A stretch of DNA of 64,000 nt from a virus (lineage: Duplodnaviria > Heunggongvirae > Uroviricota > Caudoviricetes): the IMG/VR virus record IMGVR_UViG_3300042894_001948; one strand, written 5' to 3'. The translations under genes were made by a program, and so were the position numbers. Below the pieces are notes generated by a model. It saw only the letters and a program-made list of their open reading frames with translations, was not told the origin of the DNA and did no database searches. Positions 3 to 49,548 of this stretch are shown here, piece after piece. The stretch's first letter is position 1. Every line of letters starts with the position of its first letter.

Positions 3-128
3 AAACTTAAAGAGTTTAAAGCTGCTAATAAGATTATGCTACGAACGTTTATAGAAGACATTAGTTCGACCGATACTAAAATGTCCGGTCGAATTAATGA
101 AGATACTATTTTGTTAAAAATAGGTTAA
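3..128 (+). CDS. C-terminal end of an upstream gene (partial, 41 codons open to the window edge), convergent with the giant minus-strand gene
   Basis: Frame-3 reading is open from the window edge to a TAA at 126-128 (…KMSGRINEDTILLKIG*). The short length makes this weak. Confidence 0.3.
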   Translation, partial: KLKEFKAANKIMLRTFIEDISSTDTKMSGRINEDTILLKIG

Positions 129-3100: not shown

Positions 3101-6100
3101 GCTTGCAGGATAGATCATGGCAAGCGGTTCTAAATTGTACGGACTTCCTGAATTGATAACTTCTATAACTGCAAATGTATCTGGATAGATGTCTGCATTT
3201 TGTGTAACAGTCTCTGAGTATCTTGTATGACCACTAGAATTAAATGTAGCGCGTAATCGATATGTTCCATATCCTGCTATAGTAAGTGTGATAGTTGCAG
3301 TACCAGTTGCCGATAATGCGCTAGTACGCACTAGTGTAGCTTGTATAGTGCCAGTTACATCATCTACATAAACCATATGCCAATCGTTGTCATTAGCTCC
3401 TGAAACTGTATATGTAATAGAAGCTCCATCAGTTATAGTACGTGTTCCAGCAGTAACACTAATTACTTCATTAACTTCAGATCGTACAGTCCATAATCCG
3501 GTATAAGTTCCTACAGTAAACGACATAGTAGTATCAGTTTTATAAGAGCCAGATGCAGTTAATTTTATGCCTAACATAAACTCTCCAAGTGAATTAGTAG
3601 TAGCAGTACCTGAAGCTGCATATCCTGCCATTCCGTCACCAACTACTAACCCGTTTGATGCACTAATATTTACAGTCCAATCTGGCTCTAATCTCTGCAT
3701 TACGTGAGTGGTATTTGCATTTGTCCCTAATGGATGATTATAAAACATATCCGGACTCCACGCCTCTGGAGTTAAGTCTGGATTTAACGAAGTATCGGTA
3801 ATTGACATAGTGGTATTTGACGTTGCAAAGTCACCAGTTGGTGATCCAGTTAATTGGAAAGACATTGTTTCTGGTGTACTTTCAGTTAAATGATCAGTTG
3901 CAATAGTAAACGATACAGTTGCAACACCGCTATTTACAATAAATGACCCAGTTAATGCAGGTGTCATACTTACAACTGTACCGCCAGTTGAAGTATACGA
4001 CATTGCAGAAAAGTCAGCAGCTGATACGCCTGTTATACTCCAATTATACGATGTATTAGTTGCTACATTAGTTGTTGAAATCCCAAATGATCCAGTATTT
4101 GAACCAGCGGTTTCAGTAACTGTAGCTCCGCTTCGTGTATATGTAAATAGCGGCATTGGGGTTACATACGCAGATGTTGTTGCTGCACTACTTATTCCGT
4201 TGTATACGTTTTTAGCATAAATAGAAAAGGTTCTAGTTCCTGACAATCGAGAATTGTTTGCAGACAAATCGCCTAATACAACTGATCCAGAAGTTATACC
4301 AGTTTTTGTTTGTCCGGTATCTGCAGTTACAGTATATGTATAAAGTGAATTATATGTCCATGATATAGTTGCAATACCTGTCCCGCCTACTGCAGATGGG
4401 TTAGATGGCGGATTTGGATCTCTAGTAGTTACCGAAAATGTTCTAGAACCTGCCCCTATTGTAAATGTACTAGTAACTGTATTTGTTTCATTTGGTGATG
4501 CATTCATTCTAGGCTGAAATACAATGTTACCACTACTATCCGGAATTACAGTTGCAGTTGTCACCCACCCTGTTGTTAACGATAATGTTCCAGTTTGGAA
4601 TGACCCATTTGATGCAGAAACAGTTACACCTCCACCGGTGCTATATCCAGGTGTAAATGTTCCAATTGTTACTGATGAACCGGCAACAGCTGTTGCATTT
4701 GGTTCTTGATTAGTAACACTTACAAATGCTGAAGTTATTGGATCTGGTTTTAAATCTGGAAGTGTTGTAATAGTGTTATCTACATAGATATTTCCTGCCC
4801 TGTTGTAGGTATAAATTCTTATTGTATAACCAGTCCATCCTATTAAGTTTGTGTTAGTTACAGTTGAAATAATCGAATTTGCTAATAACCCACTGTCAAA
4901 AACTTGCGACATATCACTTGTTAAGTATGCATACACTCGATAATTATCTACAGTTCTAGTTGGTGTTGTAACTGCTTTTGTCCATGATATAGAAATAGAA
5001 TTCATATCAGGAGTTAAAATTACACCCGTAACATTTACTGGTACTTCTGGCCACGATGTTTCAGTAGCAGTACCTGATTTTACAGATTCACCACCTGCAT
5101 TTACTGCTGCAACTTGATACGAATGTGCCGTATATGCGGTTATACCGGTATTATCAATAAACGGTGATGTTTTAGTGCCTACTGATGCGCCGTCTTTGTA
5201 TATTACATAAGATGTTGCTCCAACGGTAGTGCCCCATGTAACTGTAATACTTGTTTGACTTGTTGCAACCGCAGATGGCGCTGCTGGTTGAACAGTTTTA
5301 GTAGTAAACGATAATACAGCACTAACAGCAGTGCCTGCTTCATTATTAGTATCAACATATACATTGTAAACTGTGTTAGCTACTAATACAGATGTCGAAG
5401 TATTACCAACTGTTGTGTTTCCTAATAATCCGCTATTATATTTTTCAACACCGTCGGCCTGTAACAATACTCTTACTCGTTGACTAATAATAACCGGACT
5501 TGCAGATTTAGTCCATGTTACTGCTACAGTAGATGATGTTATATTTGTTAATGCGCCGTAACTTACAGCTGTTGCTGCAATTGGAAAATCTGGTAACGAT
5601 TTTGTTGCTGTACTAGCAGCCGAAATGGTTCCAACTCCGCTAGTACTTCTACCTTTAATTTTATACGTATGAGTAGAGTAAGTAACAACTGTATGATCAT
5701 ATGGAATTTGAACATTAGTTGTAATTAGTGTATCTACTGCAGAAATAACTTCGTATATATCATATGACGATGCATAAGATGCATTTGCAGTTACCCTTAA
5801 AATATTTTTACTTATTACAGTAATTACCGGAGTAGCTGGAGTTAACGGTATTATTTCTAATGTTAGTAACTCTGTAATTGTTTCTGCAGTTGGTAAAGGA
5901 GTTACTGCAGTATTTGATGCTAATAAATGTACAATATAATTAGCAGTGGTACTAATAGTAGTAGTTCCAGTACCCCACGTACCCGGATTTGATGGATAAA
6001 AAACAACAGCATGTGTTGCATCAGCACTAGAAATAATTTGAAAGTAACCATTATATGCAGTGTTACTGTTTCCGGCAATACGACACCACGAATTAACAGA

Positions 6101-7714
6101 TAGTACAGTTCCTATTGTTGAATATAAGTATGAAACTGAATATCCAGCAACACTGTTATATGTAACTGTAGTTGGTGTACTTGCTGCAGATATTGGTTGT
6201 GTCTTTACTATAACATTATTATTAGATACAGCATCGTTAACAATAGTTGTAGTTCCGGTACCGTATGTGCCTAACGCAGTAGTACCGGCATAAAATACAG
6301 TAGCATGGGTTGCATCTGCACTAGAAATAACTTGTACGTGTTTGTTATATGCAGTATTACTATTATTCTCAATACGGTACCATGATCCGGTAGTTAATGC
6401 AGCTCCTAATGATGAATACGTATATGCTACTGAATAACCGTATATGCTATTAATAGTAATCGGTACACCAGTTAACGAAAATGTTTCAACTTTCATAATT
6501 GTCGTAGTACCGGTACCCCATGTTCCGGGAGTTGTTCCTGGATAAAATACTACTGCATGAGTAGCATCAGCACTAGAAATAACCTGTACATTAGCATTGT
6601 ATAGTGGATTACTGTTTCCTTCAATACAATACCAAACATTTGTGATAAGTGCTGCACCAATTGACGAATAAGTATATTCTACTGAAAACCCAGTTACTCC
6701 GTTAAATGTAGTTGATGTTGGTGCGCCTGCTGCAGATATCTTTTCAACTTTTAGAATAGTAGTAGGACTAAACGTAGTTATTCCAAATACTTCAGGAGTT
6801 GTTGGGTAAAATACAGAAGCAGTAGTTCCATTAACACTAATAACTTGTACAGGAATATTATACAATAAGTTTGTATTTCCAGATATGCGATACCACGCAT
6901 TAGCAGTTAATGATGTACCTGAATGAGTAAAGTCTACTGAAAATCCAGGTGTACTATTGTAAGTAACTGCAATTGGTAAACTTGAAGAAATTATATACGG
7001 TAATATTTGAGATCCATTAAATGCAACTGCTGTCGGTATTCCTGCTGCAGATATTGTTTCAATTTTCATAATTAATGTAGTACCAGAACCCCATGCTCCG
7101 GGAGTTGTTCCCGGATAAAATAAGACTGCATGAGTTGCATCGGCACTAGAAATGACCTGCACTACTTTGTTATATAATGTGTTGCTATTTCCAGATAATC
7201 GATACCATGTATCAGCAGTTAACGCAACACCAAATGTTGAATATGTAAATGCTACTGAAAATCCTGCTACAGTTTTAAATGTTGTAGAAGTCGGAGTACC
7301 TGCTGCAGATATTGTAGGAAATGAACTCAACCCTGTTAAATTAGCAGTAGTTGCTAACGGTAGTGTTGTAAAATTTTGAGGAGTCCCGTAAACAATTGTA
7401 TCGGTTTTGGCATCTGTTACTGTAACTGTATACTTATTACAAATACCTTCTGAATCTCCCCATGATACTGTAGCAGACGATTGTGTAATAAGAGTAAACG
7501 TTGGATTTTTTGGTTTTCCAATATTTGATTTACCAAATCCGTCCCATAATGAAATTTTTGATAGATTATCTGGTTTTTGTAATAAATTTCTTACAGTAAC
7601 TTGATTTAACGATACTAATACAGTTGGATCAAAAAATAACTCAACATTAACTTGTGACATTGAAATTGAATTTTGTTGGTTGGTATTTGGATTTCGTTCT
7701 AATGGTAATGTCAT
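125..7714 (-). CDS. Giant fibre/adhesin-like virion structural protein (2529 aa), Ser/Thr/Gly/Val/Asn-rich, with about 5 tandem copies of a ~100-aa domain
   Basis: Uninterrupted 7.6-kb ORF. Beta-rich low-charge composition is typical of phage fibres. The repeated motif reads …YS.LG.ALT…WY.I.GNSN.LYN..VQVISSADATHAVVFYPGTTPGTWGTGTTTI…. Its ATG overlaps the stop of the upstream gene (TAATG). Confidence 0.8.
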   Translation of the reverse strand: MTLPLERNPNTNQQNSISMSQVNVELFFDPTVLVSLNQVTVRNLLQKPDNLSKISLWDGFGKSNIGKPKNPTFTLITQSSATVSWGDSEGICNKYTVTVTDAKTDTIVYGTPQNFTTLPLATTANLTGLSSFPTISAAGTPTSTTFKTVAGFSVAFTYSTFGVALTADTWYRLSGNSNTLYNKVVQVISSADATHAVLFYPGTTPGAWGSGTTLIMKIETISAAGIPTAVAFNGSQILPYIISSSLPIAVTYNSTPGFSVDFTHSGTSLTANAWYRISGNTNLLYNIPVQVISVNGTTASVFYPTTPEVFGITTFSPTTILKVEKISAAGAPTSTTFNGVTGFSVEYTYSSIGAALITNVWYCIEGNSNPLYNANVQVISSADATHAVVFYPGTTPGTWGTGTTTIMKVETFSLTGVPITINSIYGYSVAYTYSSLGAALTTGSWYRIENNSNTAYNKHVQVISSADATHATVFYAGTTALGTYGTGTTTIVNDAVSNNNVIVKTQPISAASTPTTVTYNSVAGYSVSYLYSTIGTVLSVNSWCRIAGNSNTAYNGYFQIISSADATHAVVFYPSNPGTWGTGTTTISTTANYIVHLLASNTAVTPLPTAETITELLTLEIIPLTPATPVITVISKNILRVTANASYASSYDIYEVISAVDTLITTNVQIPYDHTVVTYSTHTYKIKGRSTSGVGTISAASTATKSLPDFPIAATAVSYGALTNITSSTVAVTWTKSASPVIISQRVRVLLQADGVEKYNSGLLGNTTVGNTSTSVLVANTVYNVYVDTNNEAGTAVSAVLSFTTKTVQPAAPSAVATSQTSITVTWGTTVGATSYVIYKDGASVGTKTSPFIDNTGITAYTAHSYQVAAVNAGGESVKSGTATETSWPEVPVNVTGVILTPDMNSISISWTKAVTTPTRTVDNYRVYAYLTSDMSQVFDSGLLANSIISTVTNTNLIGWTGYTIRIYTYNRAGNIYVDNTITTLPDLKPDPITSAFVSVTNQEPNATAVAGSSVTIGTFTPGYSTGGGVTVSASNGSFQTGTLSLTTGWVTTATVIPDSSGNIVFQPRMNASPNETNTVTSTFTIGAGSRTFSVTTRDPNPPSNPSAVGGTGIATISWTYNSLYTYTVTADTGQTKTGITSGSVVLGDLSANNSRLSGTRTFSIYAKNVYNGISSAATTSAYVTPMPLFTYTRSGATVTETAGSNTGSFGISTTNVATNTSYNWSITGVSAADFSAMSYTSTGGTVVSMTPALTGSFIVNSGVATVSFTIATDHLTESTPETMSFQLTGSPTGDFATSNTTMSITDTSLNPDLTPEAWSPDMFYNHPLGTNANTTHVMQRLEPDWTVNISASNGLVVGDGMAGYAASGTATTNSLGEFMLGIKLTASGSYKTDTTMSFTVGTYTGLWTVRSEVNEVISVTAGTRTITDGASITYTVSGANDNDWHMVYVDDVTGTIQATLVRTSALSATGTATITLTIAGYGTYRLRATFNSSGHTRYSETVTQNADIYPDTFAVIEVINSGSPYNLEPLAMIYPASQMISGMSKNCPITISWSSTNFEAFSGMSVTGATSVTENTNSSLTINTDSTGSVALTFGVRMPTTFSTTCTVSITVGSRTRNPVFTATTRAADIYPTLPLASWDESTDYLIPINSTVSSAAAYVTDLEHNYSINVSSSGGSFFAGTYTTVGAPLSTSATVTTSPSGSFVMQLVLQTSNSYNTVTSMTYTVGSRTETYSVRTTANEVFTVSPSSMSVGSTATLNITGAIANSTVTLQTVNSNGNITDVVFLSGLLVNSNGSASTVYMVGARGTCQFMATFSPNGHTRTTGTVTVYPIPAVSISFNITTREMAVSITNAWPTDTFNIVGTGTGNMSGLNSPSPMTILNNGTSTAYYMGTSNAVWGTWWGTWYCTVTSSLSAYTATSNTVIVPKLAPNVTPAIGTVTAQNGSISFPYTLGASTAGPVEFVASVMNGGTPGSNANISSGTFTYIGLTNGTQYLFSVYAGNSTANGSASVFSATPVLTAPVVTVTLSYIASGLGFIDFGFTVGTNTGGPWSSYAIWTTPNPGDLTTTWISASPPYSGRLSGTINWSTPYSIYVAVSNAAGYSASSNTITVTPTPDLTPNAFSFTNTTGANNKAYYVSEEIVISGMSANAPISVSISASGDATYPNVFLVGSASSSSTPSSGSAITVTTNSSGQLYAKVATAIADLGISRTVTLTVGGGSGTWKLTTRSADTSADAFTFGSITGANLSTTYQAAMVNASGLEPLYNFTVSVSGTATNKYVYAGVPQVNITSSDLIQSNASGQIALQPGGTSSSLPLTSTYIDVTVGGQTGRYTITTKNIAPGALTMTLVSKTSTSISISWSYAAGGGVVTLIYASASNSTYGNILANPFPMAGTVTTYTFNGCTPGASYIVTVGAYNNVGNSTKSITVVTDLPTFAPPTPFTGTSTYATQILTFTYTATHTRTYTVTATGFDCRLSLNNSAYQDNDEATGNGETSTILLTAGASLTIKVTGASGGAFAKFGTITVTIT
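5900..7350 (-). repeat. Tandem in-frame repeats of ~300 nt (~100 aa) inside the 2529-aa gene, ~5 copies at 60-85 % nucleotide identity
   Basis: Near-identical DNA blocks recur near 5945, 6238, 6519, 6790 and 7085, e.g. 'cc(a/g)gtacc(c/g)catg(t/c)tccgggagttgttcc(t/c)ggataaaata…gcatgagt(a/t)gcatc(a/g)gcactagaaat(a/g)acctg'. Protein-level repeats cover aa ~125-600. Confidence 0.7.
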
Positions 7715-8784: not shown

Positions 8785-8850
8785 TAATTTAACTCCTTAG
8801 AAAGTGTTAATGTATCTTTAAAATTATATTCTTGTCTCATTCTTAATTCC

Positions 8851-11800: not shown

Positions 11801-14800
11801 GAATATGGAATATTTGTAGTACTATATCCGCCGGTACCTATATCACAGAAATCGTGTCCTGTTGCACGACAGGTACTAATACGTGTCGTTACTTGGCCGC
11901 CTACATCAACTGCATACCCAAGTTTTAAAGTATAAGATGATGTTTTACTAAACGGTTTACTAATACCTAAACTATCACCTAATCCAGATGTACTAGTTCT
12001 AACAATTGTAGTAGTACCAGTTCCATATAATCCGGGATTATACGGATAAAATATAACAGCATGGGTAGCATCAGCACTTGAAATTACTTGTACAAATCCG
12101 TTATAAAGTAAACTGCTATTTCCTGCAATTTGGTACCAAGTTCCTGCAGTAAGAGCTGATCCTAATGTTGAATAATTATATGCTACCGAATACCCTTCAA
12201 CACCATTATAAGTAGTTAATGTTGGAAGACCTGTGTTGGCATTAACAATTGTAGCAGCAGTATCTGCACCAAAAACACCAGGATCTCCAGAAAACAACGT
12301 AGTTAATTGTGTAACGGTTTCACCGGTAGATGCAATAGACGTTCTATAAACAGGTGTTGTTAGCTCTATTATTATTACTGCATCACGGTCTTGTGATGAC
12401 CGTGCTGGAGCATTTGGAGCAATACCAATTTGAATAGTTGGCGTAGTTATATAACCCGACCCTGGTCTTATTAAATTAATTTGTGTAATAACACCATTAA
12501 CTACATTACATGATGCAGTTGCTTGTTGAGTGTACGGTTCACCTACTATAGTGATAGGTGGTGGTACAGTATATCCAGTACCGCCATCTGATATATAAAT
12601 TCTTTTTACACTAGCTGCTAATATTGCTCTAATTGGAGACCCGTTTGGTGCCCAACATGACGGACTTACTACAATTTTGTTAGTATCTTTATCAACTGAT
12701 TGAACAATTGTTTCCGAGTTCATATTTGCAGTAGTTGGTGTTTTGATTGATACCAATAAACTAGTACCAGATATAAAATCAGTTTTTACTGCGTTACTTG
12801 GTGATCCTGTAGTTAACGTAAATGTATATGTCGACGGAGTTGATTTTACATAATAGATAATTCCTTTTTCTAATCCATTAGTTGTAGTATTTGACTTAAC
12901 TATATCACCTGTAGATAGACCAGTTTCTGCAATTGTTGTAAATGTAGTACCACTAGCAATAGTTGTTACAATATATTCAGATGTAATGATCATTCCCGGC
13001 ACATACCCTTCAACCGATGGAAGAGTTAAGGTAGTTTGATCTTTTATTGAAGTAACCTGCAACGGAACATTATAATTAGAATTTGAATTTCCGCTAATTG
13101 TAATAAAGCTATCAACTTTTGGTATTAAGTTATCCTTATTGTACGGAATGTTAAATGTTACTAATTTATTAACTGTGCTGTCAACTTGTAATGTACTACT
13201 TGCAAACACCATTGCAGGAATACCAGTTCCGTCTGCAGAATTATTAATAATTGCATTAGCTGAAATTTCAAGATAGCCGTTGTTATTAACACCAAATGTA
13301 ACTTCACTTCCTGCAGTAACAGTACCTACACCATTTAAAACAGTTATACTAGTATGCGTTAAATTTCCTACAGTAATTTCTGAACTTACAACAGTACCAA
13401 TAAATTCAACAGTAGATACTCCGCCAACTAACACTTTACTGACAATAATTGTTCCAGGAACAATTGTTCCCGAATTTCCTGAAACTTCTAATATCTGAGT
13501 AGTGTTGTTATACTCTACACCTAATCTAGATGCTGCAAAAGTCGGAACTACATATTTTAATACACGATGTAATCTACCATTCCATGAAGTGATATATGTT
13601 CCTTTATTGATTTGATCAATAACTGAATCTTGTGTAATACGACTTACTGCTATTTTAGTATCACTAACTTTAGATCCTTGTGTTTTAAATGAGAACGACA
13701 CCGGGCCTGCTGGAGTAATTGTTGGATTTGCAGTTGATGTAGTTACCGACCCTAATGTAATAGTATAAACACTACTTATTGGTCCGGTTACAGTTGATAC
13801 AATTTGTCCTGTAAACCCAATGCCTACAATAGTTTGTCCAGCTTCGATTATTCCGACAACATTATTAACTGTTATTGTAGTACTTGAAACACTACCGGAT
13901 ACGATAGATGCTGTTATATTTGAAGAAGGATCACCATTTACGATGTTAGCAGGGTCAACAATAAAACTGTAATATGCAAAATCATTATCACTTTGTAAAA
14001 TTGCAACGTTTGGATCTAATAAATCACCAGTTGATTCTGTTAAGTTATATGCAACAATACGATATACATCATTTAAGTTGTCATTATATTGTAATGCAGT
14101 TGATGGTCTAGTCGGTTTAACGTTATCAATATTATTAAATTTTACGTTAGTTGTTACACGAATAGTTACTACCTGCCCATGGTACAATTCTTTTGCTAAC
14201 CCAGCCGATGCTGCACTAGTTGAACTTGTTGAAGCAGATAAGTTCAGTTTAAGAACTGTTTTAGTTCCAATTAAAATTGAAGTATACTCAACTGATGTGA
14301 TTGAATACTTAGTAATAATACCGCCATTTACTGTATGATCAATTTCTAATGTAGAACCATTTGTTGGTTTATAATCATAACCACTAATCCACACAGATAC
14401 CGCAGAAGTTGTAGCAGTAGGAGTCATTTCGTTAATAGTTAACCCTTGTTTATACACTATTGCAGTTTGAATCATGTGGTTAGCAAGGTTAGTACTATCT
14501 GGTAATTCAGTAACGTCAAACCCCGACGCCCTCATACCGTAATTACCAAAGGTGTTTGAACAGCCTACGCCTCTTAAGTTACTACCGTTGTTTGCCCAAA
14601 GCCCGGTATGTGCATAATACGTAAATGTACATACTTGTTCAGTAAACGCACCATTTGTTGCAAGAATACCATATGCTAAATCATTAAACATAGCAAAGTC
14701 GTTTGCTAACATAGACCGATTACCGCCAGTTTCTAAATTAATCCGTAAATTAGCACCATTATTTAAGAAAGTAGTAACCGATGATGCAATAGTTGATATA

Positions 14801-17800
14801 TCGGTTAACACTGTACCGTAATCATCTGTATTATCTCCAGTTGGTAATGATGGGAAGTACTGCGGTCCGATAACAAGTGTTAACAATGCACCTGCACCGT
14901 ACCCTGTAGATATATTACTATTTGCAGTTGCAAGGGCAGTTAATGATGCCGGAGTAGATGTAAAGTTGCCAGCAGTTGCTCCTGTTCTTGTAAAACTAAC
15001 TGCAGTTACTGCACCAGTTAACGACACTGCAGTAACATATGCAATTACTCCAGATACTCCGGATACTGTTAATAAATTACCAACTGCATATGTGCCAGTT
15101 TGTGTTCCTGATATAGTTGCAGATACAACTTTACATGGTATAGCAACTGACGGAATAGCTGTCCATGCATGATCAACAACATAATCAATTATTATATCAC
15201 ACAAATTGCCTGCGTTAGTTACATAAGTAGAAGTTGACGTCGGTAGTGTGGTATAAAAGATTTGGCTTACACCGTTACCGGACGATTTAGTAATTACATT
15301 ATTTGCTATAATATCTTGCAATATAGATTTTAAATGAATGTATGCTTGTTTACATAATTCAAGTTCGTCCGGAATAACACTTTGTATATTATTAGCAGTA
15401 TCATAATAATAAAATGAAATAGCACTATCATAAGTTTGACTTGTTCCACCAAAGAAAATGTCATACGTGATAGCATCAATTATGTACCCGGTATCTCTTT
15501 CGCTAGTTAACACGTTATAATTAGCAAACTTACTAATATTATACCCGCTGCTACCAGCAGCAAGCCATGCACTAATTTCTGTTTTAATAAACTCTTTATT
15601 GTTTTGAATAATATCACGAACTTTATTTAAATCACTGGTTGCACTAGTAGGCCAAGTAATAGTAGGTGTTGCATTAACCCCGTTGCTAATCATACCAGTT
15701 ATAATTCTAATATTATTTGATAATAAACTAGTATTTGCAAAGTATAAATTTGCCAATCTTGCAGATTCGTCAATACCTGAAATTGTTAAATCTTTCAAAC
15801 CACCAATTAATAAGCTTGAATACGTTCTTAAAAATGATCTACCTGCATGTATTGATCGATAGTTAGTTCCTAATATAGCATCAGTTATTGCAGCATCAAG
15901 AACAAACCCAACGTCACGTTGTGCTTTTAATAAGTCATAAGTAAGTGCATGGGTAACAGGATCATACATATACGTAGTTGACTTATCTAACGTTAACACC
16001 ACTGTTTTAGTTGATGCATCAAAACTTGCAATATCATCAATCTGATATCGGTTACCACGTACATAGAAAGAGCAAGGTGGTTGTGGCGGTCTAACATCTA
16101 AACCACTATTGTCTTCACCTATTACTGTTACAGTAAGTCCTTGATCTGCAATGTTAGTAATTGTACCATATAATCTACCTGCAAACCCGTCAATCAATTG
16201 ACCACCTGCAAATCTTTTATAGTTATTACTTTGCGAGAAACTAGAACATTCTTGGATGTATGGTGATTTAGTTTTAATGTTACCTTCTGGATCAAGTACC
16301 ATAGCAAATCCGCCATGACCTTGGAATGTCATACCTAAAACCCTGTTTCCTTCATTACATAAAAATACGTCAATTTCTTTATTATTTTTAGGTGTACTGT
16401 TGATATCTAACGGATCAGTTAAGTAATGACGTCCGTAATTGTTAGTATCAAACAATTTCCACGTAACTATTTTAGTTACACCTGCTACAATAACAGAATA
16501 CGGATATATCCCTGGTTGATCAAATGGATAAATTACAGTACAATTCATAGTGTTGCCACTTACTGAATCAATAACTGCTCTTCCTCGTTTTTTATTATCA
16601 GTAGTCGATGTATCAGCAATTACTCTACCAACCCATGATAATAATGCTTGATAGTTACTACCTAATGTAACAACGATCTTATTTGATACACCGTCAAATG
16701 ATGCAGTAATATTGTGTGAAATTACACCGGTACCGTTATTAGTAAACGACACAGCACTTCCATCTTTAACAGATGCAACCTTAAACGTGTTTATTGAAAC
16801 AGGAATTACAAAATACCCTACATTTAATGTTAACCCAGTAGTTGTATTAACTGATAAAAATGTAACTCGATTGTTTAATAAAAATCCATGACTTACTAAT
16901 GTAATTAAGTCGCCGGAATCAGTAAAAGACACGTTAGTTGAAACAACTGGAGAATAATCAGTATAATGAGTCATTATACCGGTACCGTTGTTAGTTAACG
17001 TCGATGCACTACCAGTAATAGACAATTTAACTTTAAATGTGTTTTCTGAAACAGGTATTGCATAATAATCAATATCAGTAGTTAACCCGGTAGTTGTACT
17101 AATAGTTACAAATTTTACTTTTGAATTTAAAATAAGACCATGCGATGCTAATGTAACTAAATCACCGGTATCTGTAAATGACACAAAACTTGATACTACA
17201 GGTGAATCATCAGTTCCGTTATAATTAACTTTACCAATTTCTAGTGCATCAATAATAGAATCACGATAAAAGAACATGTTAACCCATGCACTTTGACTAA
17301 TTCTGTCAATTGGTCGAATAATTGTTCTACGGAATTCGTCACCTTTAATAGAAACGTTAGCGGGTAATCTAATTGGATAATCTTCGTAGTAAATACCACT
17401 TTCTACAAATACTGTAATTTGTAAATCACGAACAGTTTCACCAAATTCTAATTCCTCACCAACTTGAATTACAACAGTTAATGTTGTGCTAGTACCAGTT
17501 GGTATTGCATCTGCAGTAAATGAGAATGTATTAGTCGTTACAGATGATACAACCCATGAACCTGTTGGTGCATTAGTGTTACTACCAGAAAAATTAGCAG
17601 AATTTACAATAATATTTGTTCCTGCAGTAACTGTGTGATTGTTACTAGTAACTATAATATTAGCATTTGAATATGCCCAGGTAACATTAGATAAAATATA
17701 AGATGATGTAAAGAATCCAGGTTTAGATAACCGAACTTGTACAGTATCAACATTTCCTAGTGTACCTACACCAAACTCACCAGGTCCTGTTATCGCAGTT

Positions 17801-20800
17801 GGGGTTTGACCAATACTTAATTCAGCTGTATTTCCAGATGTTAACGTAACTACTGCAGTGCCAGTTGACAACGTAGCAGATAATCCAGTAACTGTTCCAA
17901 CAGTGATTGTAATACTGCCTGCAGTTTTATGATTAACCGATAGTGTAAATTGTGTAAGACTGTCAATTGAGATAATAGTTAACGATGTATCTTGTGCCGG
18001 CACATATTTTACAATTGTGCCATATGCGTCCGATGCATCAACTGTTGATGAACCGACACCAAGTACTACTTTAGCAGGAAAAATATCGTTGTTTGACGGT
18101 GACCCTTGATCAACAAATCCTCTACCACCATTGTTAACACAAACATGCCATATTCCAGTGCCGTATGATGCAACTGGTGCTACGCCGACACCGTATTGAA
18201 GAATATTAAGAACTGTATCAAAACTATTAGTAAATTTTGTTATTGAATCATTTGAATTTAATATACCTGTTCCATTTAATGTCAATGTAACAGAATTACC
18301 AGTTAATGTAGTTAATTTAAAATTATGAGTAGTTGCATTTGCTACATAATAAATTGTATTGGTAACAATACCAGTAGTTGTTGTGATAGATGAGAATGAT
18401 ACTGATGTACCGTTAGTTAGACCATGGCTAGTTAAAACAACTAAATCGCCAATATCAACAAACGATACTGATCTTAATGATGCAACATTTGCTGCTATAT
18501 TACCTTGTACAAATATAGAAGTTGACGGTAACTCGCTTGCATTTGAGAATGAAACAAGCTGAGGCAACGATTGATATCTAACTGCAGTTTCTTTATTTAA
18601 GACCTGCAATGCAACTGTTTTAGCAAATTGTAATCCGTCAAGCGATTGTTTATAATGTGTGCCGCCAACTGCAATAGTTCTTGCACTAGCATTTTTATAA
18701 AAACTTTTTCCTGAATTAATAGCTTGCCATGTTCCGCCTGTTATTAAATCAATACACATTGAATCAATGATAAATCCTAAATCTCTATAACACAACGATT
18801 CATCGTATACAAACCCGCCTGCAAATGTAGTATTAACATACACAACAGTGCTGTTAACAATTGACGTTGAATTGTTTATAATAAGATTTCTTAATGATAT
18901 TGCATTTCTATACATATCATTTGTATCATTATTAGTAAATGTATCTTCGTTAACTAGCGTTATTGTAGGGCTGGCAACAGTTAAAAAGTTAACAACTTTG
19001 TCAACTTTATCGTTAATTAACGCAGTTATTGCAGATAGTTGAGGCGCAGTGCCGGAATAATTAGCAGTAATTTGTGCAGTAGCAAAAGTTTTTACACGAT
19101 TAAAAATGTTTGTTGTACCGTTGGTGTTACCTGGTGCATCGCCAACTTTTGTATATTGTTGACTTGCTCGATATAATGCCGAATCTCCACCAAACGTTAT
19201 ATCATATAACAACGCAGTTACAATATTTTGTAATTCCTGAACCATCTTTACTCGATCATAAGTAACGCCGTAAAACAGTTCTCCAATATCTCGATTATCA
19301 TATACATACAATTCGGTGTTAGTAGCAATATTGTTAATGATACTATATGTAAAAATTGATCTAGTTTGATCAATCATTGCTGCAGTAATAGTTTGATTAG
19401 TGTTAACTTTTATATTTGAACTTAATGCAGGAAACGTTGGTAACGTTGTTGGAACTTTACCAGATTGTATAATATCGGTTATAACTTTGAATAATCTTAT
19501 AATTTTAGTTTGTTTAATCTCAGTATCAATTACTGGATAAAACTTATTCATAAACCAAGATGTAGATGTAGTAGGTCCGGTTGTATACACAGCAGTTGTA
19601 TTGCCAATACCGGTATAGACTGTTTGCAAATCACTATTGCCGGTTGTAATATCTGGGTATGTAGTAGACACTGGCACATTTGCAATATCAGTTAAAATAT
19701 CTGCAATTAACGTAATGTTTGACGAAACTGACAACGACGCAACTATACCATTAGATAGTGTATCATTTCTATATTGTCTTACAGATTGCTGATATGATAC
19801 GTTTAATGTACCGTTTTTAATAATTGATTGTGCTAATACGTTGACATGTCTAATTGCTGCAATACATGCTTCTGATTCTGAATCTTTAATAAAATTAGAT
19901 GATGCGTTAGCCCAAAATTGTTTTCCAGCATACACACTTTGACTATTACCGCCGTATGTTAAATCGTATACTAAACTCCAAATAATATATTTTATATCAC
20001 GATTGCTTAACGCTCTATCATAAATTACATTTGGATATTTTGAACTTAAAAACGACAATGTTTCAGCTTGAATAAATGCAATATTTTCTAACAATAACTG
20101 TTTAGCTGATGCATGCCCAACTAGATCATACCCTACTGCTGGATTTGCAGGTAATGGATACTTTACTGCAGGCAATGTTCCGTACAGTACGTAGTTACGA
20201 ATAACGTTAATATTTGAAATAATTAAACTTGTTTTTGATGCCGCTGGTAGATTACGAATTGCCGGTGTTAACATTAACAAGTTGATTAAATTTTTACGAT
20301 CTATGGTACCAGTTGCACTAAATCTTCCAGCATTTAATTGTAATGTAGTATTTGAGAACGAAACTGAAGTAAGGGTTGATCTAGTAACTACAAACGAAAC
20401 AACTGCACTGTTATTAAATGAAGAAATTGTAACCGCATCAGACGCAATATCTATACCAATTAGAGATGCATTAATAAGAATCTCACTTGCTACTGGATAC
20501 AAAATTGATGTTTGTGTGTTAAAGAATAATGTTATTTGAGATCCGTCACACTCTGCTGATTTAATAGATATTGGATTAATAATTAACATAGATGCTAATT
20601 GTTCAGCACTTATATTAGTACCAGCATTTTTAAATGCAATTGCTGTTTGAACACTTTGATAATTTGATTTAAACAATGCATCGTACTTAATTGCATTAAT
20701 TAATTGTAAAGTATATGCTTGTAATGCAACTGTGTTATATGAGAAATCGATAATTTGATCTCTTATAAAGTTAACAGTTTCGACCCACTGAATTAAACCA

Positions 20801-22131
20801 TCACTAGTTGGATTATCGTGAACATAACTTACACCTTCCCAGTATGAATTGTAATTAGTACCCGACGTAGCAGAATCTGGATTAGATGCGCCTAGCACTA
20901 AATCGGTTCCGATATTTGTTAATAAAACATTAATCTTATCTTTAAGTGTATTAGTGTCATAGGCAAACGGATTAACGTATTTTTTATTAATATACGCAAT
21001 TGCTTCTGCTTGAATAAAACCTTTGTTTGCTTGTAATAAATTAAATGCAGCAACATACCCAGAATCGCTAGAATTTCCACCAGTTAACGACACTTTTTGA
21101 ATTTTTGAAAAATACTGATCAGCACTTATCGTATAGGAAATACGTTGTTTGTATGGGCCTGGTTCTTGACTTGCTACATTAATTAATGACTCTGCATGTA
21201 ACATTGCAGCACCGACCGACCTAAAAGCGTAATTCCAAAATCTACCTTCTTTACCTGCAGGAGTTTGTGATTGTAAATCATCGCCGCTAGTTGCTACGTA
21301 TAGATTAACATTACTTGAAAATGTTTTTTTATCAACATAAAACGCAGTTGCGGCTTGTAAATCATCTTTATTATCAATACCAACTATACCTGCTAATTCT
21401 TTTGGATGATCATGTAAATACAGCGGCCCTGTCATAGTATCACCACCGCGGTATATTGTATTCTTACGAGGTAGTACTTCGGATGGCAAATAATTACTAG
21501 TTAATGTTGAATCGTATGTGCTTCCTGCAGATGTATCAGGTGCAATCGGTTCATTACGCGCACTTACTGGACCTGGTACAATTGAACCGTTTGAATCTAC
21601 TATACCTATAGTACCGTCTTCTGTTAATCTTACATAATTTTTATTTGCATAACCAACGTTAACTACTAACTCGTCAAGTGTAGTTGTAACATTAAGAGGA
21701 GCCCATAAGGTGTTAAATGATTGAACTAATGCATCGCTTGGATCCGGAACTCTTCCGATAGGAAACCCATTTGCATTAAACGGATATTTAATTTCAGGAG
21801 TTTCATCTTCTGAAAGTTGAGATGCTTTTGATGATATAACGATCGACGTGTCAGTGATATTAATGTCAATAAACTTATTACCTTTAACTAATTTTCTAGC
21901 AGTTAAACTGGTACCAGTTGCATTACCCATAATAATTTGATTTCCAACTAATACATCATTTACTGTTGAATAATCGCAACCATCTGCTAAATCAGAAAAG
22001 GTAATACGGCCGCCTTGGTTAAAAATTGCATATATTTCAGTAAAGTTTGCATTAACTTTACGAAATGCGTCTCTTATACTATCACCAGTGCCGTCGTTGC
22101 CTTGTACACCGATTTGAATTTGTTCTTGCAT
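8851..22131 (-). CDS. Giant virion fibre/adhesin-like protein (4426 aa)
   Basis: Single 13.3-kb ORF. AAGGAG sits 5 nt upstream of the ATG at 22131. The N-terminus (GNDGTGDSIRDAFRKVNANFTEIY) resembles fibre N-terminal attachment motifs. It contains one copy of the ~100-aa VQVISSADATHAV… domain and three copies of a ~72-aa repeat. Confidence 0.8.
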   Translation of the reverse strand: MQEQIQIGVQGNDGTGDSIRDAFRKVNANFTEIYAIFNQGGRITFSDLADGCDYSTVNDVLVGNQIIMGNATGTSLTARKLVKGNKFIDINITDTSIVISSKASQLSEDETPEIKYPFNANGFPIGRVPDPSDALVQSFNTLWAPLNVTTTLDELVVNVGYANKNYVRLTEDGTIGIVDSNGSIVPGPVSARNEPIAPDTSAGSTYDSTLTSNYLPSEVLPRKNTIYRGGDTMTGPLYLHDHPKELAGIVGIDNKDDLQAATAFYVDKKTFSSNVNLYVATSGDDLQSQTPAGKEGRFWNYAFRSVGAAMLHAESLINVASQEPGPYKQRISYTISADQYFSKIQKVSLTGGNSSDSGYVAAFNLLQANKGFIQAEAIAYINKKYVNPFAYDTNTLKDKINVLLTNIGTDLVLGASNPDSATSGTNYNSYWEGVSYVHDNPTSDGLIQWVETVNFIRDQIIDFSYNTVALQAYTLQLINAIKYDALFKSNYQSVQTAIAFKNAGTNISAEQLASMLIINPISIKSAECDGSQITLFFNTQTSILYPVASEILINASLIGIDIASDAVTISSFNNSAVVSFVVTRSTLTSVSFSNTTLQLNAGRFSATGTIDRKNLINLLMLTPAIRNLPAASKTSLIISNINVIRNYVLYGTLPAVKYPLPANPAVGYDLVGHASAKQLLLENIAFIQAETLSFLSSKYPNVIYDRALSNRDIKYIIWSLVYDLTYGGNSQSVYAGKQFWANASSNFIKDSESEACIAAIRHVNVLAQSIIKNGTLNVSYQQSVRQYRNDTLSNGIVASLSVSSNITLIADILTDIANVPVSTTYPDITTGNSDLQTVYTGIGNTTAVYTTGPTTSTSWFMNKFYPVIDTEIKQTKIIRLFKVITDIIQSGKVPTTLPTFPALSSNIKVNTNQTITAAMIDQTRSIFTYSIINNIATNTELYVYDNRDIGELFYGVTYDRVKMVQELQNIVTALLYDITFGGDSALYRASQQYTKVGDAPGNTNGTTNIFNRVKTFATAQITANYSGTAPQLSAITALINDKVDKVVNFLTVASPTITLVNEDTFTNNDTNDMYRNAISLRNLIINNSTSIVNSTVVYVNTTFAGGFVYDESLCYRDLGFIIDSMCIDLITGGTWQAINSGKSFYKNASARTIAVGGTHYKQSLDGLQFAKTVALQVLNKETAVRYQSLPQLVSFSNASELPSTSIFVQGNIAANVASLRSVSFVDIGDLVVLTSHGLTNGTSVSFSSITTTTGIVTNTIYYVANATTHNFKLTTLTGNSVTLTLNGTGILNSNDSITKFTNSFDTVLNILQYGVGVAPVASYGTGIWHVCVNNGGRGFVDQGSPSNNDIFPAKVVLGVGSSTVDASDAYGTIVKYVPAQDTSLTIISIDSLTQFTLSVNHKTAGSITITVGTVTGLSATLSTGTAVVTLTSGNTAELSIGQTPTAITGPGEFGVGTLGNVDTVQVRLSKPGFFTSSYILSNVTWAYSNANIIVTSNNHTVTAGTNIIVNSANFSGSNTNAPTGSWVVSSVTTNTFSFTADAIPTGTSTTLTVVIQVGEELEFGETVRDLQITVFVESGIYYEDYPIRLPANVSIKGDEFRRTIIRPIDRISQSAWVNMFFYRDSIIDALEIGKVNYNGTDDSPVVSSFVSFTDTGDLVTLASHGLILNSKVKFVTISTTTGLTTDIDYYAIPVSENTFKVKLSITGSASTLTNNGTGIMTHYTDYSPVVSTNVSFTDSGDLITLVSHGFLLNNRVTFLSVNTTTGLTLNVGYFVIPVSINTFKVASVKDGSAVSFTNNGTGVISHNITASFDGVSNKIVVTLGSNYQALLSWVGRVIADTSTTDNKKRGRAVIDSVSGNTMNCTVIYPFDQPGIYPYSVIVAGVTKIVTWKLFDTNNYGRHYLTDPLDINSTPKNNKEIDVFLCNEGNRVLGMTFQGHGGFAMVLDPEGNIKTKSPYIQECSSFSQSNNYKRFAGGQLIDGFAGRLYGTITNIADQGLTVTVIGEDNSGLDVRPPQPPCSFYVRGNRYQIDDIASFDASTKTVVLTLDKSTTYMYDPVTHALTYDLLKAQRDVGFVLDAAITDAILGTNYRSIHAGRSFLRTYSSLLIGGLKDLTISGIDESARLANLYFANTSLLSNNIRIITGMISNGVNATPTITWPTSATSDLNKVRDIIQNNKEFIKTEISAWLAAGSSGYNISKFANYNVLTSERDTGYIIDAITYDIFFGGTSQTYDSAISFYYYDTANNIQSVIPDELELCKQAYIHLKSILQDIIANNVITKSSGNGVSQIFYTTLPTSTSTYVTNAGNLCDIIIDYVVDHAWTAIPSVAIPCKVVSATISGTQTGTYAVGNLLTVSGVSGVIAYVTAVSLTGAVTAVSFTRTGATAGNFTSTPASLTALATANSNISTGYGAGALLTLVIGPQYFPSLPTGDNTDDYGTVLTDISTIASSVTTFLNNGANLRINLETGGNRSMLANDFAMFNDLAYGILATNGAFTEQVCTFTYYAHTGLWANNGSNLRGVGCSNTFGNYGMRASGFDVTELPDSTNLANHMIQTAIVYKQGLTINEMTPTATTSAVSVWISGYDYKPTNGSTLEIDHTVNGGIITKYSITSVEYTSILIGTKTVLKLNLSASTSSTSAASAGLAKELYHGQVVTIRVTTNVKFNNIDNVKPTRPSTALQYNDNLNDVYRIVAYNLTESTGDLLDPNVAILQSDNDFAYYSFIVDPANIVNGDPSSNITASIVSGSVSSTTITVNNVVGIIEAGQTIVGIGFTGQIVSTVTGPISSVYTITLGSVTTSTANPTITPAGPVSFSFKTQGSKVSDTKIAVSRITQDSVIDQINKGTYITSWNGRLHRVLKYVVPTFAASRLGVEYNNTTQILEVSGNSGTIVPGTIIVSKVLVGGVSTVEFIGTVVSSEITVGNLTHTSITVLNGVGTVTAGSEVTFGVNNNGYLEISANAIINNSADGTGIPAMVFASSTLQVDSTVNKLVTFNIPYNKDNLIPKVDSFITISGNSNSNYNVPLQVTSIKDQTTLTLPSVEGYVPGMIITSEYIVTTIASGTTFTTIAETGLSTGDIVKSNTTTNGLEKGIIYYVKSTPSTYTFTLTTGSPSNAVKTDFISGTSLLVSIKTPTTANMNSETIVQSVDKDTNKIVVSPSCWAPNGSPIRAILAASVKRIYISDGGTGYTVPPPITIVGEPYTQQATASCNVVNGVITQINLIRPGSGYITTPTIQIGIAPNAPARSSQDRDAVIIIELTTPVYRTSIASTGETVTQLTTLFSGDPGVFGADTAATIVNANTGLPTLTTYNGVEGYSVAYNYSTLGSALTAGTWYQIAGNSSLLYNGFVQVISSADATHAVIFYPYNPGLYGTGTTTIVRTSTSGLGDSLGISKPFSKTSSYTLKLGYAVDVGGQVTTRISTCRATGHDFCDIGTGGYSTTNIPYSIYGDPALARNPAHETLDEGVGRCFYVSTNQDGIFRVGRFFSVDQGTGTVTFSAKISLSNIEGFGFSRGVVVNEFSSDSSLTNNASEIVPVQSAVRGYIDKRLGLDHGGSLMPFTSIIGPGFLPLNGITAMNGPINMNGEHRITGLNGPAVDSDAATKGYVDTQISSKDAVSKLGDVKVTGTPQSAQVLSYVIGPTDSGLSTEYKWRNKTIIGDITLSVVSETISGITYYNLTSIIGAGKIVNSMVSSTAAVDQSKLALTAAPTASTVPSSFVQANLGVASFNSNQFNATYGWIDLKNNGVALGKLAAISTGNVLGNNSGSSVAPTEISFGTVVTGGDGITNAVFGSGTTALTNYVMLASYNGTTTSQNTYSLIATTTTNDLRNRIVKTGDVGDINAEQYKIDGSKIIDTIGAGAAETIKVVFTTPGSSDFLTAVGNGTNLAPVVVKVLGTLDVSGNTINASTLNYSGTNLTGTISGSWTLPTGSTFDARQGTFRSSGAGLEASDTRPKVKPTVMFDFANSRTLDPRITFTRESIGTYYDMSGVMKVAIANQPRFTYNTVTRMSSGLLIEESRTNYIRYSALFTLGAITDATTWYDTRISRDPLSGVVAPDGTTAIKFTADSGTTALAPATIMFQSAPASSGTPRTFSIWIKRVSGTGSIQYTMDPNTEVTVSSEPSWYTIPVTTTLTRYDFTDNTSDHGVGIKLETAGDSIVMWGAQLEDGGMVTSYIPTVTTIVTREADTVYVGGTNFSRWYNQNEGTILISQAATAIDKSIIVKDYGGVFIENVNQSTTIAVGGLTTGTSSMIYKAVGKTNTSTTQFNLSSITTAVLNNEVTHAVAYRSTLLPVVITASASTTTTTTFTSIAVINGIFPGASIAVTTGVGSYPAGTYVVSVLGNTLVTSQAPSTTLSASVVITVTNAIVSYISNGDNATLVTDSSSDIVDSVNPMQRLNIGNETGAQTISKIAYYPVRLNDAEITAITTQ
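11990..12290 (-). repeat. Single copy of the ~100-aa VQVISSADATHAV domain, shared with the 2529-aa gene
   Basis: The protein segment …YSVAYNYSTLGSALTAGTWYQIAGNSSLLYNGFVQVISSADATHAVIFYPYNPGLYGTGTTTIV lies about aa 3300-3400. DNA near 12020-12105 is ~80 % identical to the blocks at 6238-7165. Confidence 0.6.
16716..17193 (-). repeat. Two adjacent copies of a ~72-aa repeat (F.D.GDL.TL.SHG…TTTGL…YY.IPVS.NTFKV…NNGTGI) in the 4426-aa gene
   Basis: Protein repeats sit at aa ~1647-1722 and 1733-1805. Matching DNA blocks ('taccggtaccgtt(g/a)ttagt(t/a)aacg…') are visible near 16730 and 16980. Confidence 0.55.
18255..18468 (-). repeat. Third, more diverged copy of the ~72-aa GDLV.L.SHGL…NGTGI repeat
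   Basis: aa ~1222-1292: VSFVDIGDLVVLTSHGLTNGTSVSFSSITTTTGIVTNTIYYVANATTHNFKLTTLTGNSVTLTLNGTGIL. Confidence 0.5.
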
Positions 22132-23685: not shown

Positions 23686-24114
23686 CTACTTCTTCATTTC
23701 AGTACAACTATCTACTGCTGGACATTCATTGCAAATATCAGTATTAGTTGCTTTACAATTTACAATAATCTTTACATGTTCAAGATCTGTTGAAATGTCA
23801 TTTAATATCTGATATTCATTATGTATTGCTCTAACTAACTTACCTATTGTACTAACCGTCCAATACCACCAATTTATACTAACTATTAAGCTAACCGAAA
23901 TAATACCCCACCAAATTAAATTGTTATTAAGACTAGACAGATAAAACCAGCTAGCAATTATGCAACATACTGCTACTACTACTATTGAACTAGCATACAG
24001 CCACATTCTTCGTTGACGATAAATTATTTCCAATTCAACGGTGTGCTCATCTATTGTTCCTTGTCTATTATTGTCATTTGTCATTACACTCCTAAAGCAC
24101 CAAACGGTTTCCAT
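23686..24114 (-). CDS. Membrane protein (2 TM helices) with a Cys-rich C-terminal tail
   Basis: Hydrophobic stretches LYASSIVVVAVCCIIASWFYL and IWWGIISVSLIVSINWWYWTV, with C-terminal …CKATNTDICNECPAVDSC. Confidence 0.5.
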   Translation of the reverse strand: METVWCFRSVMTNDNNRQGTIDEHTVELEIIYRQRRMWLYASSIVVVAVCCIIASWFYLSSLNNNLIWWGIISVSLIVSINWWYWTVSTIGKLVRAIHNEYQILNDISTDLEHVKIIVNCKATNTDICNECPAVDSCTEMKK

Positions 24115-46317: not shown

Positions 46318-46319
46318 TC

Positions 46320-49507: not shown

Positions 49508-49520
49508 TCCGTTACAATTA

Positions 49521-49548
49521 AAAAAGGCAGCTAGTCTGCCTTTTTTTA
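49521..49548 (+). terminator. Rho-independent terminator
   Basis: aaaaaaGGCAGctagtCTGCCttttttt. Confidence 0.75.

Follow-up and report, generated by a model that had tools for sequence, protein, structure and literature searches.

A small β-barrel repeat of a new sequence family in two giant proteins of a putative adsorption cassette of a freshwater jumbo phage

A freshwater jumbo myovirus with a genome of roughly 310 kb encodes two giant proteins, here called pA and pB, that share copies of a small β-barrel repeat. The sequence family of the repeat is new and its fold a common one, and its copies are old and selectively conserved, not recently converted. Five of them form a tandem array that is nested in one FN3 domain of pA. 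Together with pC, the fibre protein encoded between them, the two giants probably make up a three-gene adsorption cassette that consists of a gp10-anchored giant (pB), an S74 fibre (pC) and an FN3 chain (pA), with the barrels as adhesion modules.

Results

Organization of the locus

The window (the whole stretch of DNA analysed, 64,000 nt) carries pB, pC and pA as co-directional genes on the minus strand, with pC located between the two giants (Table 1). Both giant open reading frames lie exactly where the original prediction had placed them, with products of 2529 aa (pA) and 4426 aa (pB), and a composition count agrees with its description of the two as rich in Ser, Thr, Asn, Gly and Val: both are biased toward Thr, Ser, Val, Gly, Asn and Ala, and pA contains 17.6% Thr and 12.4% Ser. 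They are also intact, since a check for frameshifts in independent assemblies found none. Seven contigs from JGI and Logan assemblies encode the identical pA product, with the Logan assemblies coming from three different sequencing runs, and the identical pB product is encoded on several contigs, the longest of which has 310 kb; contigs carrying the locus range from 266 to 310 kb. A strain variant of pB (P0025) also has 4426 aa and differs by 17 substitutions, without indels.

pC is a member of the Peptidase_S74 domain family (E = 5e-14; 52.7 bits at a cutoff of 22) and matches 27 tail-fibre PHROGs. Its stop codon overlaps the start codon of pA by 1 nt, and this overlap is kept in every relative examined (L001, L014 and the P0003 contig), which suggests coupled expression of the two genes. 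The gene order QueD, giant, S74 fibre and FN3 protein is kept in relatives as well, a case of conserved synteny. A scan for promoters and terminators gave counts equal to the shuffled expectation, and megablast of window positions 5000-13000 against cultured phages gave no match.

The neighbours of the cassette are replication and metabolic genes, namely those for QueD, a clamp loader, a Clp ATPase and the DNA polymerase. This position outside any recognisable structural module, and the lack of homology of pA to known structural proteins, would fit the view that one or both giants are not part of the virion, being non-structural, secreted or injected, or that they are products of misassembly. 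Misassembly is excluded by the identity of the giant open reading frames in the independent JGI and Logan assemblies. As for the remainder of this view, pB carries domains of the baseplate type and of the fibre-tip type, pA is coupled to the gene of an S74 fibre in all relatives, and structural genes are usually scattered in jumbo phages, so that we consider it very unlikely. To judge from their sequences, pA and pB are putative virion components.

Table 1. Features of the pB-pC-pA locus in the window.
Feature	Window position	Residues (aa)	Strand	Basis
pA, beads-on-a-string protein, 2529 aa	125..7714		minus	ORF; FN3 domains, five-barrel array, more repeated β modules
Remainder (F strand, 'NYIVHLLASN') of the split FN3 of pA	5885..5935	594-610	minus	Alignments, in-silico array removal
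Five-barrel tandem array in pA	5933..7328	about 130-594	minus	Unit profile; BLASTN borders
Barrel A5 (pA)	5936-6196	507-593	minus	Unit profile
Barrel A4 (pA)	6230-6490	409-495	minus	Unit profile
Barrel A3 (pA)	6482-6742	325-411	minus	Unit profile
Barrel A2 (pA)	6743-7003	238-324	minus	Unit profile
Barrel A1 (pA)	7055-7315	134-220	minus	Unit profile
N-terminal part (strands A-E) of the first FN3 of pA	7325..7516	67-130	minus	fn3 profile 2-57, cut off by array
pC, 356-aa fibre protein with C-terminal Peptidase_S74	7714..8784		minus	ORF, Pfam, PHROGs
Peptidase_S74 intramolecular-chaperone domain of pC	7828-8013	258-319	minus	PF13884
pB, giant modular protein, 4426 aa	8851..22131		minus	ORF and translation
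GTA head-spike-fibre domain of pB, putative polysaccharide-binding distal tip	9583..10101	4011-4183	minus	NCBIfam NF048003, PDB 6tb9
Conserved post-B1 block of pB ('TGHDF.DIGTGG ... QDGIFRVG')	11032..11985	3383-3700	minus	Covered by 11/11 homologues
Barrel B1 (pB)	11986..12246	3296-3382	minus	Unit profile, E = 1.7e-43; opens the conserved 3300-3700 block
Diverged extra barrel copy of pB, GNSN..YN motif kept	13024..13203	2977-3036	minus	hmmsearch, i-E = 2.8e-5
Three ~75-aa 'HGL' repeats of pB, own repeat family, variable region	16714..18468	1222-1309, 1640-1722, 1724-1806	minus	Self-comparison, DNA family D6
gp9/gp10-type N-terminal segment of pB, putative trimerisation and baseplate/fibre docking	21991..22131	1-47	minus	Pfam, family profile

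The repeat unit and its fold

Five tandem copies in pA and one in pB, as originally described, were recovered with a profile of the repeat unit; the copy in pB (B1), expected around aa 3350, spans aa 3296-3382. The profile matches each of the six copies with an E of 1e-36 to 1e-46, and BLASTP of pA against pB gives an E of 2e-25. These values are far past chance, and therefore, the repeat is real. The unit has a length of 85-87 aa, not ~100 aa as first estimated, and the tandem period is 84-104 aa. The string that had been put forward as an invariant core occurs verbatim in copy 3 alone; among the six copies, 23 of the 87 columns are invariant, and the conserved motifs are W-Y-R, GNSN..YNG, QVISSADATHA and FYP..PG..G.GTT.

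The predicted structure of the unit is a closed β-barrel of seven β strands (pLDDT 92). It resembles the FCCH domain of ubiquitin E1, domain 1B of Upf1 and Ighmbp2, and the β-barrel of endosialidases (phages K1F and phi92), and further structural lookalikes are riboflavin synthase, ribosomal protein L3 and FAD barrels of the FNR type. The Foldseek E-values against the FCCH, Upf1-1B and endosialidase barrels are not significant and the sequence identities are 6-13%; the fold is alike, but functional equivalence would be an analogy only. Among predicted viral structures, nothing significant was found (best E = 0.03). The best lookalikes there, with TM values of up to 0.74, come from uncultured aquatic Caudovirales; they are uncharacterised, and one has 32% identity. 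Other top lookalikes are cyanophage proteins named 'fiber' or 'short tail fiber' and endosialidase barrels.

Searches of Pfam, NCBIfam and PHROG with the repeat gave no family match. With all six copies and E ≤ 10, hmmscan returned a sole stray match of one copy to SO2946-like_C (E 0.0056); neither E1_FCCH nor End_beta_barrel of Pfam was matched at E ≤ 10, and no PHROG was matched. With the unit alignment as query, a word-indexed search of 5.8 billion proteins returned nothing, and a Pfam search of six other barrel-bearing proteins (P0010, P0011, P0014, P0017, P0019 and P0023) found no domains. The domain is thus novel, as had been supposed, in that no curated sequence family matches it, but its fold, a common small closed β-barrel, is not new.

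The seven β strands, the FN3 nature of the neighbouring domains and a weak match of the unit profile, in PDB sequences, to framework 3-4 of an antibody VH domain (E = 0.0026) could indicate that the repeat belongs to the FN3 domains or to the Ig-like ones (V-set or I-set). A known family of this kind had been named beforehand as the finding that would speak against the original prediction. Since no Ig or FN3 structure is among the top 60 structural matches of the barrel, we judge the VH match to be spurious. The model does not have the two-sheet sandwich topology of Ig and FN3 domains, and neither the Ig clan nor fn3 of Pfam is matched; we regard an assignment to these families as extremely improbable.

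Age of the copies

A DNA identity of ~85% between copies had been reported and read as the mark of recent duplication or of gene conversion between the two genes. Over whole units, we find an identity of 58-74% overall and of 59-66% between pA and pB. The best local identity, 82% over 130 nt, is between copies 1 and 3, both inside pA; the best stretch shared by the two genes reaches 71% over 182 nt. On the protein level, B1 has 45-60% identity to the pA copies, and these are 44-62% identical to orthologous copies of other phages (P0002 and P0003), to which B1 is 63-64% identical. At positions with the same amino acid in copy 3 and B1, 26 of 51 codons are identical, at an expectation of 22.9, and copies 1 and 3 are the only pair noticeably above expectation (36 of 59 identical codons observed and 27.1 expected). 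As identical codons are about as frequent as expected from codon usage, synonymous sites are near saturation. With synonymous sites near-saturated and the motifs kept, the copies must be old and under purifying selection.

That the copies of pA and pB are kept alike by recent duplication or continuing gene conversion is already largely refuted by these values, and we consider it highly improbable. This reading can draw on the stretch shared by copies 1 and 3 and on the excess of identical codons in this pair. Between the genes, to which the claim referred, identities are low on both levels and same-codon counts are near expectation, the pA copies resemble those of other phages (P0002 and P0003) as much as they resemble B1, and the array-bearing pA allele is itself old, as described below.

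Distribution of the barrel and of the pB family

Run exhaustively with HMMER against 1.84 billion representative proteins, the six-copy profile returned 23 matches at E ≤ 1e-3. Besides pA, most of them are proteins of 2700-4500 aa with the pB-type N-terminus 'IGVQGNDGTGDSIR'. In the closest giants (the orthologues P0003-P0016), the strongest barrel match lies at ~70-75% of the length, which is the position of B1 in pB. Outside the giant family, pA is the sole match with a five-copy tandem array among the 23. A broader HMM was built from 18 barrel copies and applied to 80 IMG/VR loci with the conserved block that follows B1. It detected 2-6 barrels per giant open reading frame, with four in tandem in one locus (L030), and it revealed ~270-aa proteins just downstream of some giants, in which a gp9/10-type N-terminus is directly joined to one barrel. 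Copy numbers in proteins of the pB family range from 1 to 6, and the copies are sometimes in tandem. The matches across the giants identify the barrel as a native, recurrent module of the giant fibre family. When IMG/VR was scanned for patterns of pA or of the unit alignment, no relatives were found. In the protein universe, the barrel is rare, and it is not unique to this phage.

The pB family is a widespread, unnamed family of 3100-4500-aa proteins in freshwater and marine phages. Eleven representative homologues have 2727-4512 aa (at least 3556 aa in 10 of the 11), and the IMG/VR loci contain dozens of open reading frames of 3100-4300 aa. Therefore, the length of 4426 aa, which had been called extreme even for jumbo phages, is normal for the family.

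Insertion of the array into an FN3 domain of pA

pA is a chain of FN3/Ig-like domains, like beads on a string, and is not demonstrably a fibre. It belongs to the fn3 family of Pfam (PF00041), which it matches in several stretches (E = 3e-18; 66.2 bits at a cutoff of 25), and self-comparison revealed internal repeats at aa 1030-1832. Searches of PHROG and NCBIfam gave no match to a tail-fibre family, tblastn of the whole 2529-aa protein against cultured phages gave no match, and a trimerisation motif was not detectable.

The first FN3 domain of pA is split by the barrel array. Its fn3 match breaks off at profile position ~57 and returns to profile positions 2-70 when the array is removed from pA in silico; in an array-less allele, the match extends over aa 67-145 (profile 2-72; 28.6 bits). 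Since the match is broken by the array and restored without it, the array, an in-frame insertion, is located in the E-F loop of this domain, between 'ANLTGL' and 'NYIVHLLASN'. The borders of the array in the window (Table 1) follow from BLASTN of three relatives (L007, L011 and L014), whose alignments stop at 7329 and resume at 5932. The 10-nt string ACTGCTAATT (T-A-N) is present at both array junctions, which may be chance.

Protein alignments of array-less relatives skip pA aa 132-591. In L007, whose pB is 99.6% identical, the pA homologue runs from aa 1-131 straight into ~592 onwards. The homologue in L014 is complete with 1581 aa and aligns to aa 1-131 and 592-1757, again skipping the array, and the P0003 contig encodes an FN3 protein of 1093 aa at the position of pA. 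The flanks of array-plus and array-minus alleles are ~75% identical, which argues that the array-bearing pA allele is old. Along the alignment of the window with L007, identity falls from ~100% to ~78% near window position ~7900, at the 3' end of pC, and this drop indicates that the whole pA allele was exchanged by recombination. By parsimony, the array was probably gained in this lineage and not lost elsewhere. Recombinational exchange of alleles is typical of fibre modules.

Architecture of pB

The N-terminus of pB is probably of the type found in the baseplate proteins gp9 and gp10. pB alone matches PF07880 (T4_gp9_10_N) with an E of 3.3e-4 and 21.2 bits, below the cutoff of 25 bits. The family profile (A3) matches, over ~45 residues, gp10 of T4 (E = 1.9e-6), gp10 of another phage (8.9e-5), a 'baseplate wedge tail fiber connector' (2.7e-5) and gp9 of T4 (1.2e-3) in the PDB. 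In the rest of pB, a PDB profile search and Pfam gave no further match to gp10 or gp9 domains. T4 gp10 is a trimer at the periphery of the baseplate, with the short tail fibre docked coaxially onto its N-terminal domain; gp9 is likewise a trimeric protein of the baseplate periphery that serves as an attachment point for fibres (PMC3004832). The first ~45 residues of the pB family can be aligned with the N-termini of T4 gp10 and gp9 ('IGVQGNDGTGDSIR.AF.KVN.NF.E.Y'; PDB 5hx2, 2fl8 and 1s2e), but pB is 7-15 times longer than these proteins, the similarity is confined to the N-terminus, and the Pfam score of the single sequence is below the gathering cutoff.

Across the 11 homologues, aa 1-1200, 1550-1650, 1800-2330, 2430-2950 and 3300-3700 of pB are conserved blocks, and the C-terminal ~500 aa are variable. 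Self-comparison revealed α-helical repeats of ~100 aa in addition to the 'HGL' repeats. Diverged barrels were considered as an identity for the latter and rejected (hhalign probability 0.1). A PDB sequence search with aa 1690-2450, a putative β-helix-like region, returned nothing. The block that follows B1 has relatives in at least 585 IMG/VR loci and matches a 'tail fiber protein' of cyanophage S-SSM7. An AlphaFold monomer model of pB aa 3290-3720, made with 20 homologues, has a mean pLDDT of 51 and is unusable save for the barrel, probably because this block is an obligate trimer. Matches of pB to cultured phages are restricted to short patches in fibre genes of cyanophages and pelagiphages.

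Close to the C-terminus, pB contains a domain that fits the GTA_spike_fiber family over all 182 positions of its model (NF048003; E = 5.9e-26; 92.1 bits at a cutoff of 36). This domain also matches the head spike fibre Rcc01080 of the Rhodobacter gene transfer agent (RcGTA) in the PDB (6tb9; E = 5e-12) and phrog_5939 ('tail protein'), as well as the tail-fibre gene of RcapMu and tail-protein genes of cyanophages. The head spike fibre of RcGTA binds capsular polysaccharide (PMC10218006). The domain of pB thus matches the Rcc01080 and RcapMu tips, but Rcc01080 is a head spike of 325 aa, whereas pB, with 4426 aa and an N-terminus of the baseplate type, carries the domain as its tip. Between two strains, pB has 17 nonsynonymous and 5 synonymous codon differences, and 9 of the 17 nonsynonymous changes are at aa 4030-4115, inside the tip domain. 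The clustering of changes in this domain and the variable C-terminus are the pattern expected of a receptor-binding tip.

Discussion

The proposal of a role in host range or adhesion stands as far as the cassette is concerned: a probable gp9/gp10-type N-terminus, a GTA-type tip and an S74 fibre mark it as a likely host-attachment cassette. The description of pA as a fibre is not supported. In our model, pB would be a trimeric, baseplate-attached appendage with a long shaft of α-helical repeats and β modules, the barrel among them, and its exchangeable, strain-variable tip would bind host surface polysaccharide. pC, with its presumably self-cleaving S74 chaperone, and pA would be assembled jointly as accessory proteins of the fibre or adhesion type. 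The barrels would make weak, low-affinity contacts to glycans, so that more copies would give a higher avidity for the host surface, and the presence or absence of the array may tune adsorption or host range. Glycan binding by the barrel is suggested by analogy, as the barrel of endosialidases has a site for sialic acid, and by the conserved aromatic and Asn-rich motifs.

The main rival to barrels as adhesion modules is that they are inert structural spacers, which make the proteins longer or stiffer and nothing else, and that the five-copy array merely lengthens the reach of pA. The rest of pA is a chain of FN3/Ig-like beads, the number and position of barrels vary widely among family members, and the fold is a generic one that is used in many unrelated contexts, all of which speaks for a spacer. 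Set against this is the retention of W-Y-R, GNSN..YNG, QVIS and FYP..PG..G.GTT across paralogues and phages despite saturated synonymous sites, a stronger constraint than a spacer would require, although fold stability may explain part of it. Furthermore, the direct attachment of a barrel to the gp9/10-type N-terminus in the ~270-aa proteins suggests that the barrel is a functional head. We therefore consider a pure spacer function rather unlikely, and a contribution to adhesion remains the reading that we prefer.

A more far-reaching version of the adhesion reading is that the barrels are a new glycan-binding family, present in variable number on giant gp10-anchored baseplate fibres (3-4.5 thousand aa) of large aquatic myoviruses, that the array is a host-range switch at the strain level that is carried by recombination, and that the phage is possibly a pmoC-type phage of methanotrophs. 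In this full form, it is speculative and we give it a low probability. If the barrels do bind host glycans, the copy number of the array would be a genomic read-out of the adsorption strategy in uncultured phages. Under the far-reaching version, the pB family would be among the largest known classes of baseplate appendages, with the barrel count as a marker of how its members adsorb.

Seen against known systems, the cassette is not a new kind of system: modular shuffling in phage host-recognition proteins is well known, and the five-fold nested insertion is a tidy, strain-variable instance of domain shuffling. Like the Ig-like/FN3-decorated proteins of the T4 Hoc type, pA is a Ser/Thr-rich chain of small β domains, a pattern typical of accessory adhesion proteins on the phage particle; it differs from them in its 2529 aa and in the array of five domains nested in one FN3 loop. 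Jumbo T4-like phages with branched, multi-component fibre systems, such as RaK2/phiK64-1 and phiKp24 (PMC10253068, PMC9700779), likewise have consecutive fibre genes. In contrast to these systems, no homologue of pA and only short patches of pB were found in cultured phages, and no depolymerase domain was identified here.

What the analysis adds is a fold and an evolutionary history for an unannotated domain of a large, uncharacterised family of giant fibres in abundant freshwater and marine phages. It also gives a first architecture of the pB family, in which a probable gp9/10-type anchor is followed by a very long shaft of modules and by an exchangeable, putatively polysaccharide-binding tip. 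Moreover, pA is a clear natural example of several domains that sit as an array within an FN3 loop of one allele, and relatives, including one with a near-identical pB, have alleles without the array.

By the identity of its DNA polymerase to those of Sinorhizobium phage Phosso (50%), Atu_ph07 (45%) and 121Q-like phages (43%), the polymerase of the phage groups with the jumbo clade of the branched-fibre phages named above. A 318-kb phage from Lake Biwa has a similar polymerase identity to Atu_ph07, and its predicted host is LD12 (10.1101/655167). On the contig of the window, ~6 kb beyond the window start, two adjacent open reading frames match AmoC/PmoC, a pair reminiscent of the 'fragmented pmoC' in TP6_1 and LR_6, two freshwater pmoC-phages of 308-314 kb (PMC7674155).

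Exchange of the pA allele and variation in pB

The window and strain L007 share 99 to 100% nucleotide identity across the genes for pB, the 4426-aa giant modular protein, and pC, the 356-aa fibre protein with a C-terminal Peptidase_S74 chaperone domain, and the identity falls to 76 to 81% from window ~7850-7950 onward into the gene for pA, the 2529-aa FN3-bead protein. Judged from this drop, the position is a recombination breakpoint, and on the same comparison the entire pA allele is unlike between two strains that are nearly identical elsewhere. At window 7714, the pC stop codon shares one nucleotide with the pA start codon. This overlap is also kept in L001 (the contig with the window), in the relative L014, and in the P0003 contig, which encodes a barrel-bearing homologue; its retention suggests that translation of the S74 fibre and that of the FN3 giant are coupled. 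Within pA, the 10-nt string ACTGCTAATT, which codes for T-A-N, stands at both ends of the five-barrel array (window 5933-5945 and 7329-7345). It may be microhomology left by an insertion or deletion event or, the sequence there being AT-rich, may have arisen by chance.

Over the whole pB gene, the two strains differ by 17 nonsynonymous and 5 synonymous codons. Nine of the 17 amino acid differences are grouped at aa 4030-4115 (window 9787-10044), within the GTA head-spike-fibre domain, and this clustering suggests that the receptor-binding tip of pB is under diversifying selection or carries a micro-recombination patch.

Modules shared with other phage proteins

At least 585 IMG/VR loci, L016-L095 among them, carry relatives of the block that follows B1, the barrel copy in pB (window 11032-11985; "TGHDF.DIGTGG ... 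QDGIFRVG"). Many of these loci lie on much smaller contigs and lack a barrel. In many fragments, this block is followed by a conserved C-terminal module, "YADLAE.Y..D..YEPGTV", which pB lacks. The barrel itself also occurs in proteins of ~270 aa, in which a gp9/10-type N terminus ("IQTINVGSYANDGSGDDLR.AF.KVNENF") is directly followed by one barrel copy; they may be gp9-like fibre sockets. Searched against the PDB, the profile of the barrel unit (A1) matched framework 3-4 of an antibody VH domain (E = 0.0026), in the stretch "...NTLY...SS..A.DTAVYYC...WGQGTTVTV". Homology to VH was rejected from the predicted fold, and the match is deceptive, being compositional or convergent.

Two further repeat families are found in pB. 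The first, of ~100 aa, has the motif "RD.G.I.DA..D...GG" and is apparently alpha-helical; two of its copies are overlapped by tblastn matches in cultured cyanophages (pB aa ~662-1021 and 2058-2237), to genes annotated as "gp7 baseplate wedge initiator" or "short tail fibre." The second, with the pattern "GDLV.L.SHGL...V.F......TG......YY........F," lies in variable segments of pB and was ruled out as a barrel relative by hhalign.

Locations of repeats, genes, and the recombination breakpoint (window positions unless stated)
Feature	Location	Strand	Evidence or matches
Recombination breakpoint	~7850-7950; 3′ end of pC, S74 chaperone region		Nucleotide identity drop versus L007
~100-aa repeats	pB aa 358-461, 672-773, 956-993, 1079-1153, 2063-2137, 2172-2296; ~15240-21060		
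Three ~75-aa "HGL" repeats	pB aa 1222-1309, 1640-1722, 1724-1806; 16714-18468		
~270-aa gp9/10 N-terminus + barrel proteins	L049, L057-L060, ORFs immediately downstream of giant genes; also P0019		
485-aa adhesin-/fibre-like protein	24084-25541	-	Weak: virion-structural and short-tail-fibre PHROGs
871-aa adhesin-/fibre-like protein	25628-28243	+	He_PIG Ig-like domain
862-aa ORF	46919-49507		Weak: peptidoglycan-binding and endolysin-like
AmoC/PmoC ORF pair	L001 23559-24814, ~6 kb past window position 1, on the window's contig		Pfam PF04896

Further genes

AmoC/PmoC is matched by each of two neighboring ORFs (40 and 211 aa), which therefore represent a fragmented pmoC/amoC-like gene. In contig size (266-310 kb), GC content, and the fragmented gene, this phage is similar to TP6_1 and LR_6, large freshwater pmoC-phages (PMC7674155). 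Close to it on L001 are genes for a DNA ligase, ClpP, an Imm_superinfect protein, and an eIF-1a/IF-1-like protein.

The 485-aa and 871-aa genes adjoin the pA-pC-pB cassette, and both are kept in the related P0003 contig. The GC content is 0.38 to 0.42 at window 46001-50000, where the 862-aa ORF lies, versus ~0.35 elsewhere.
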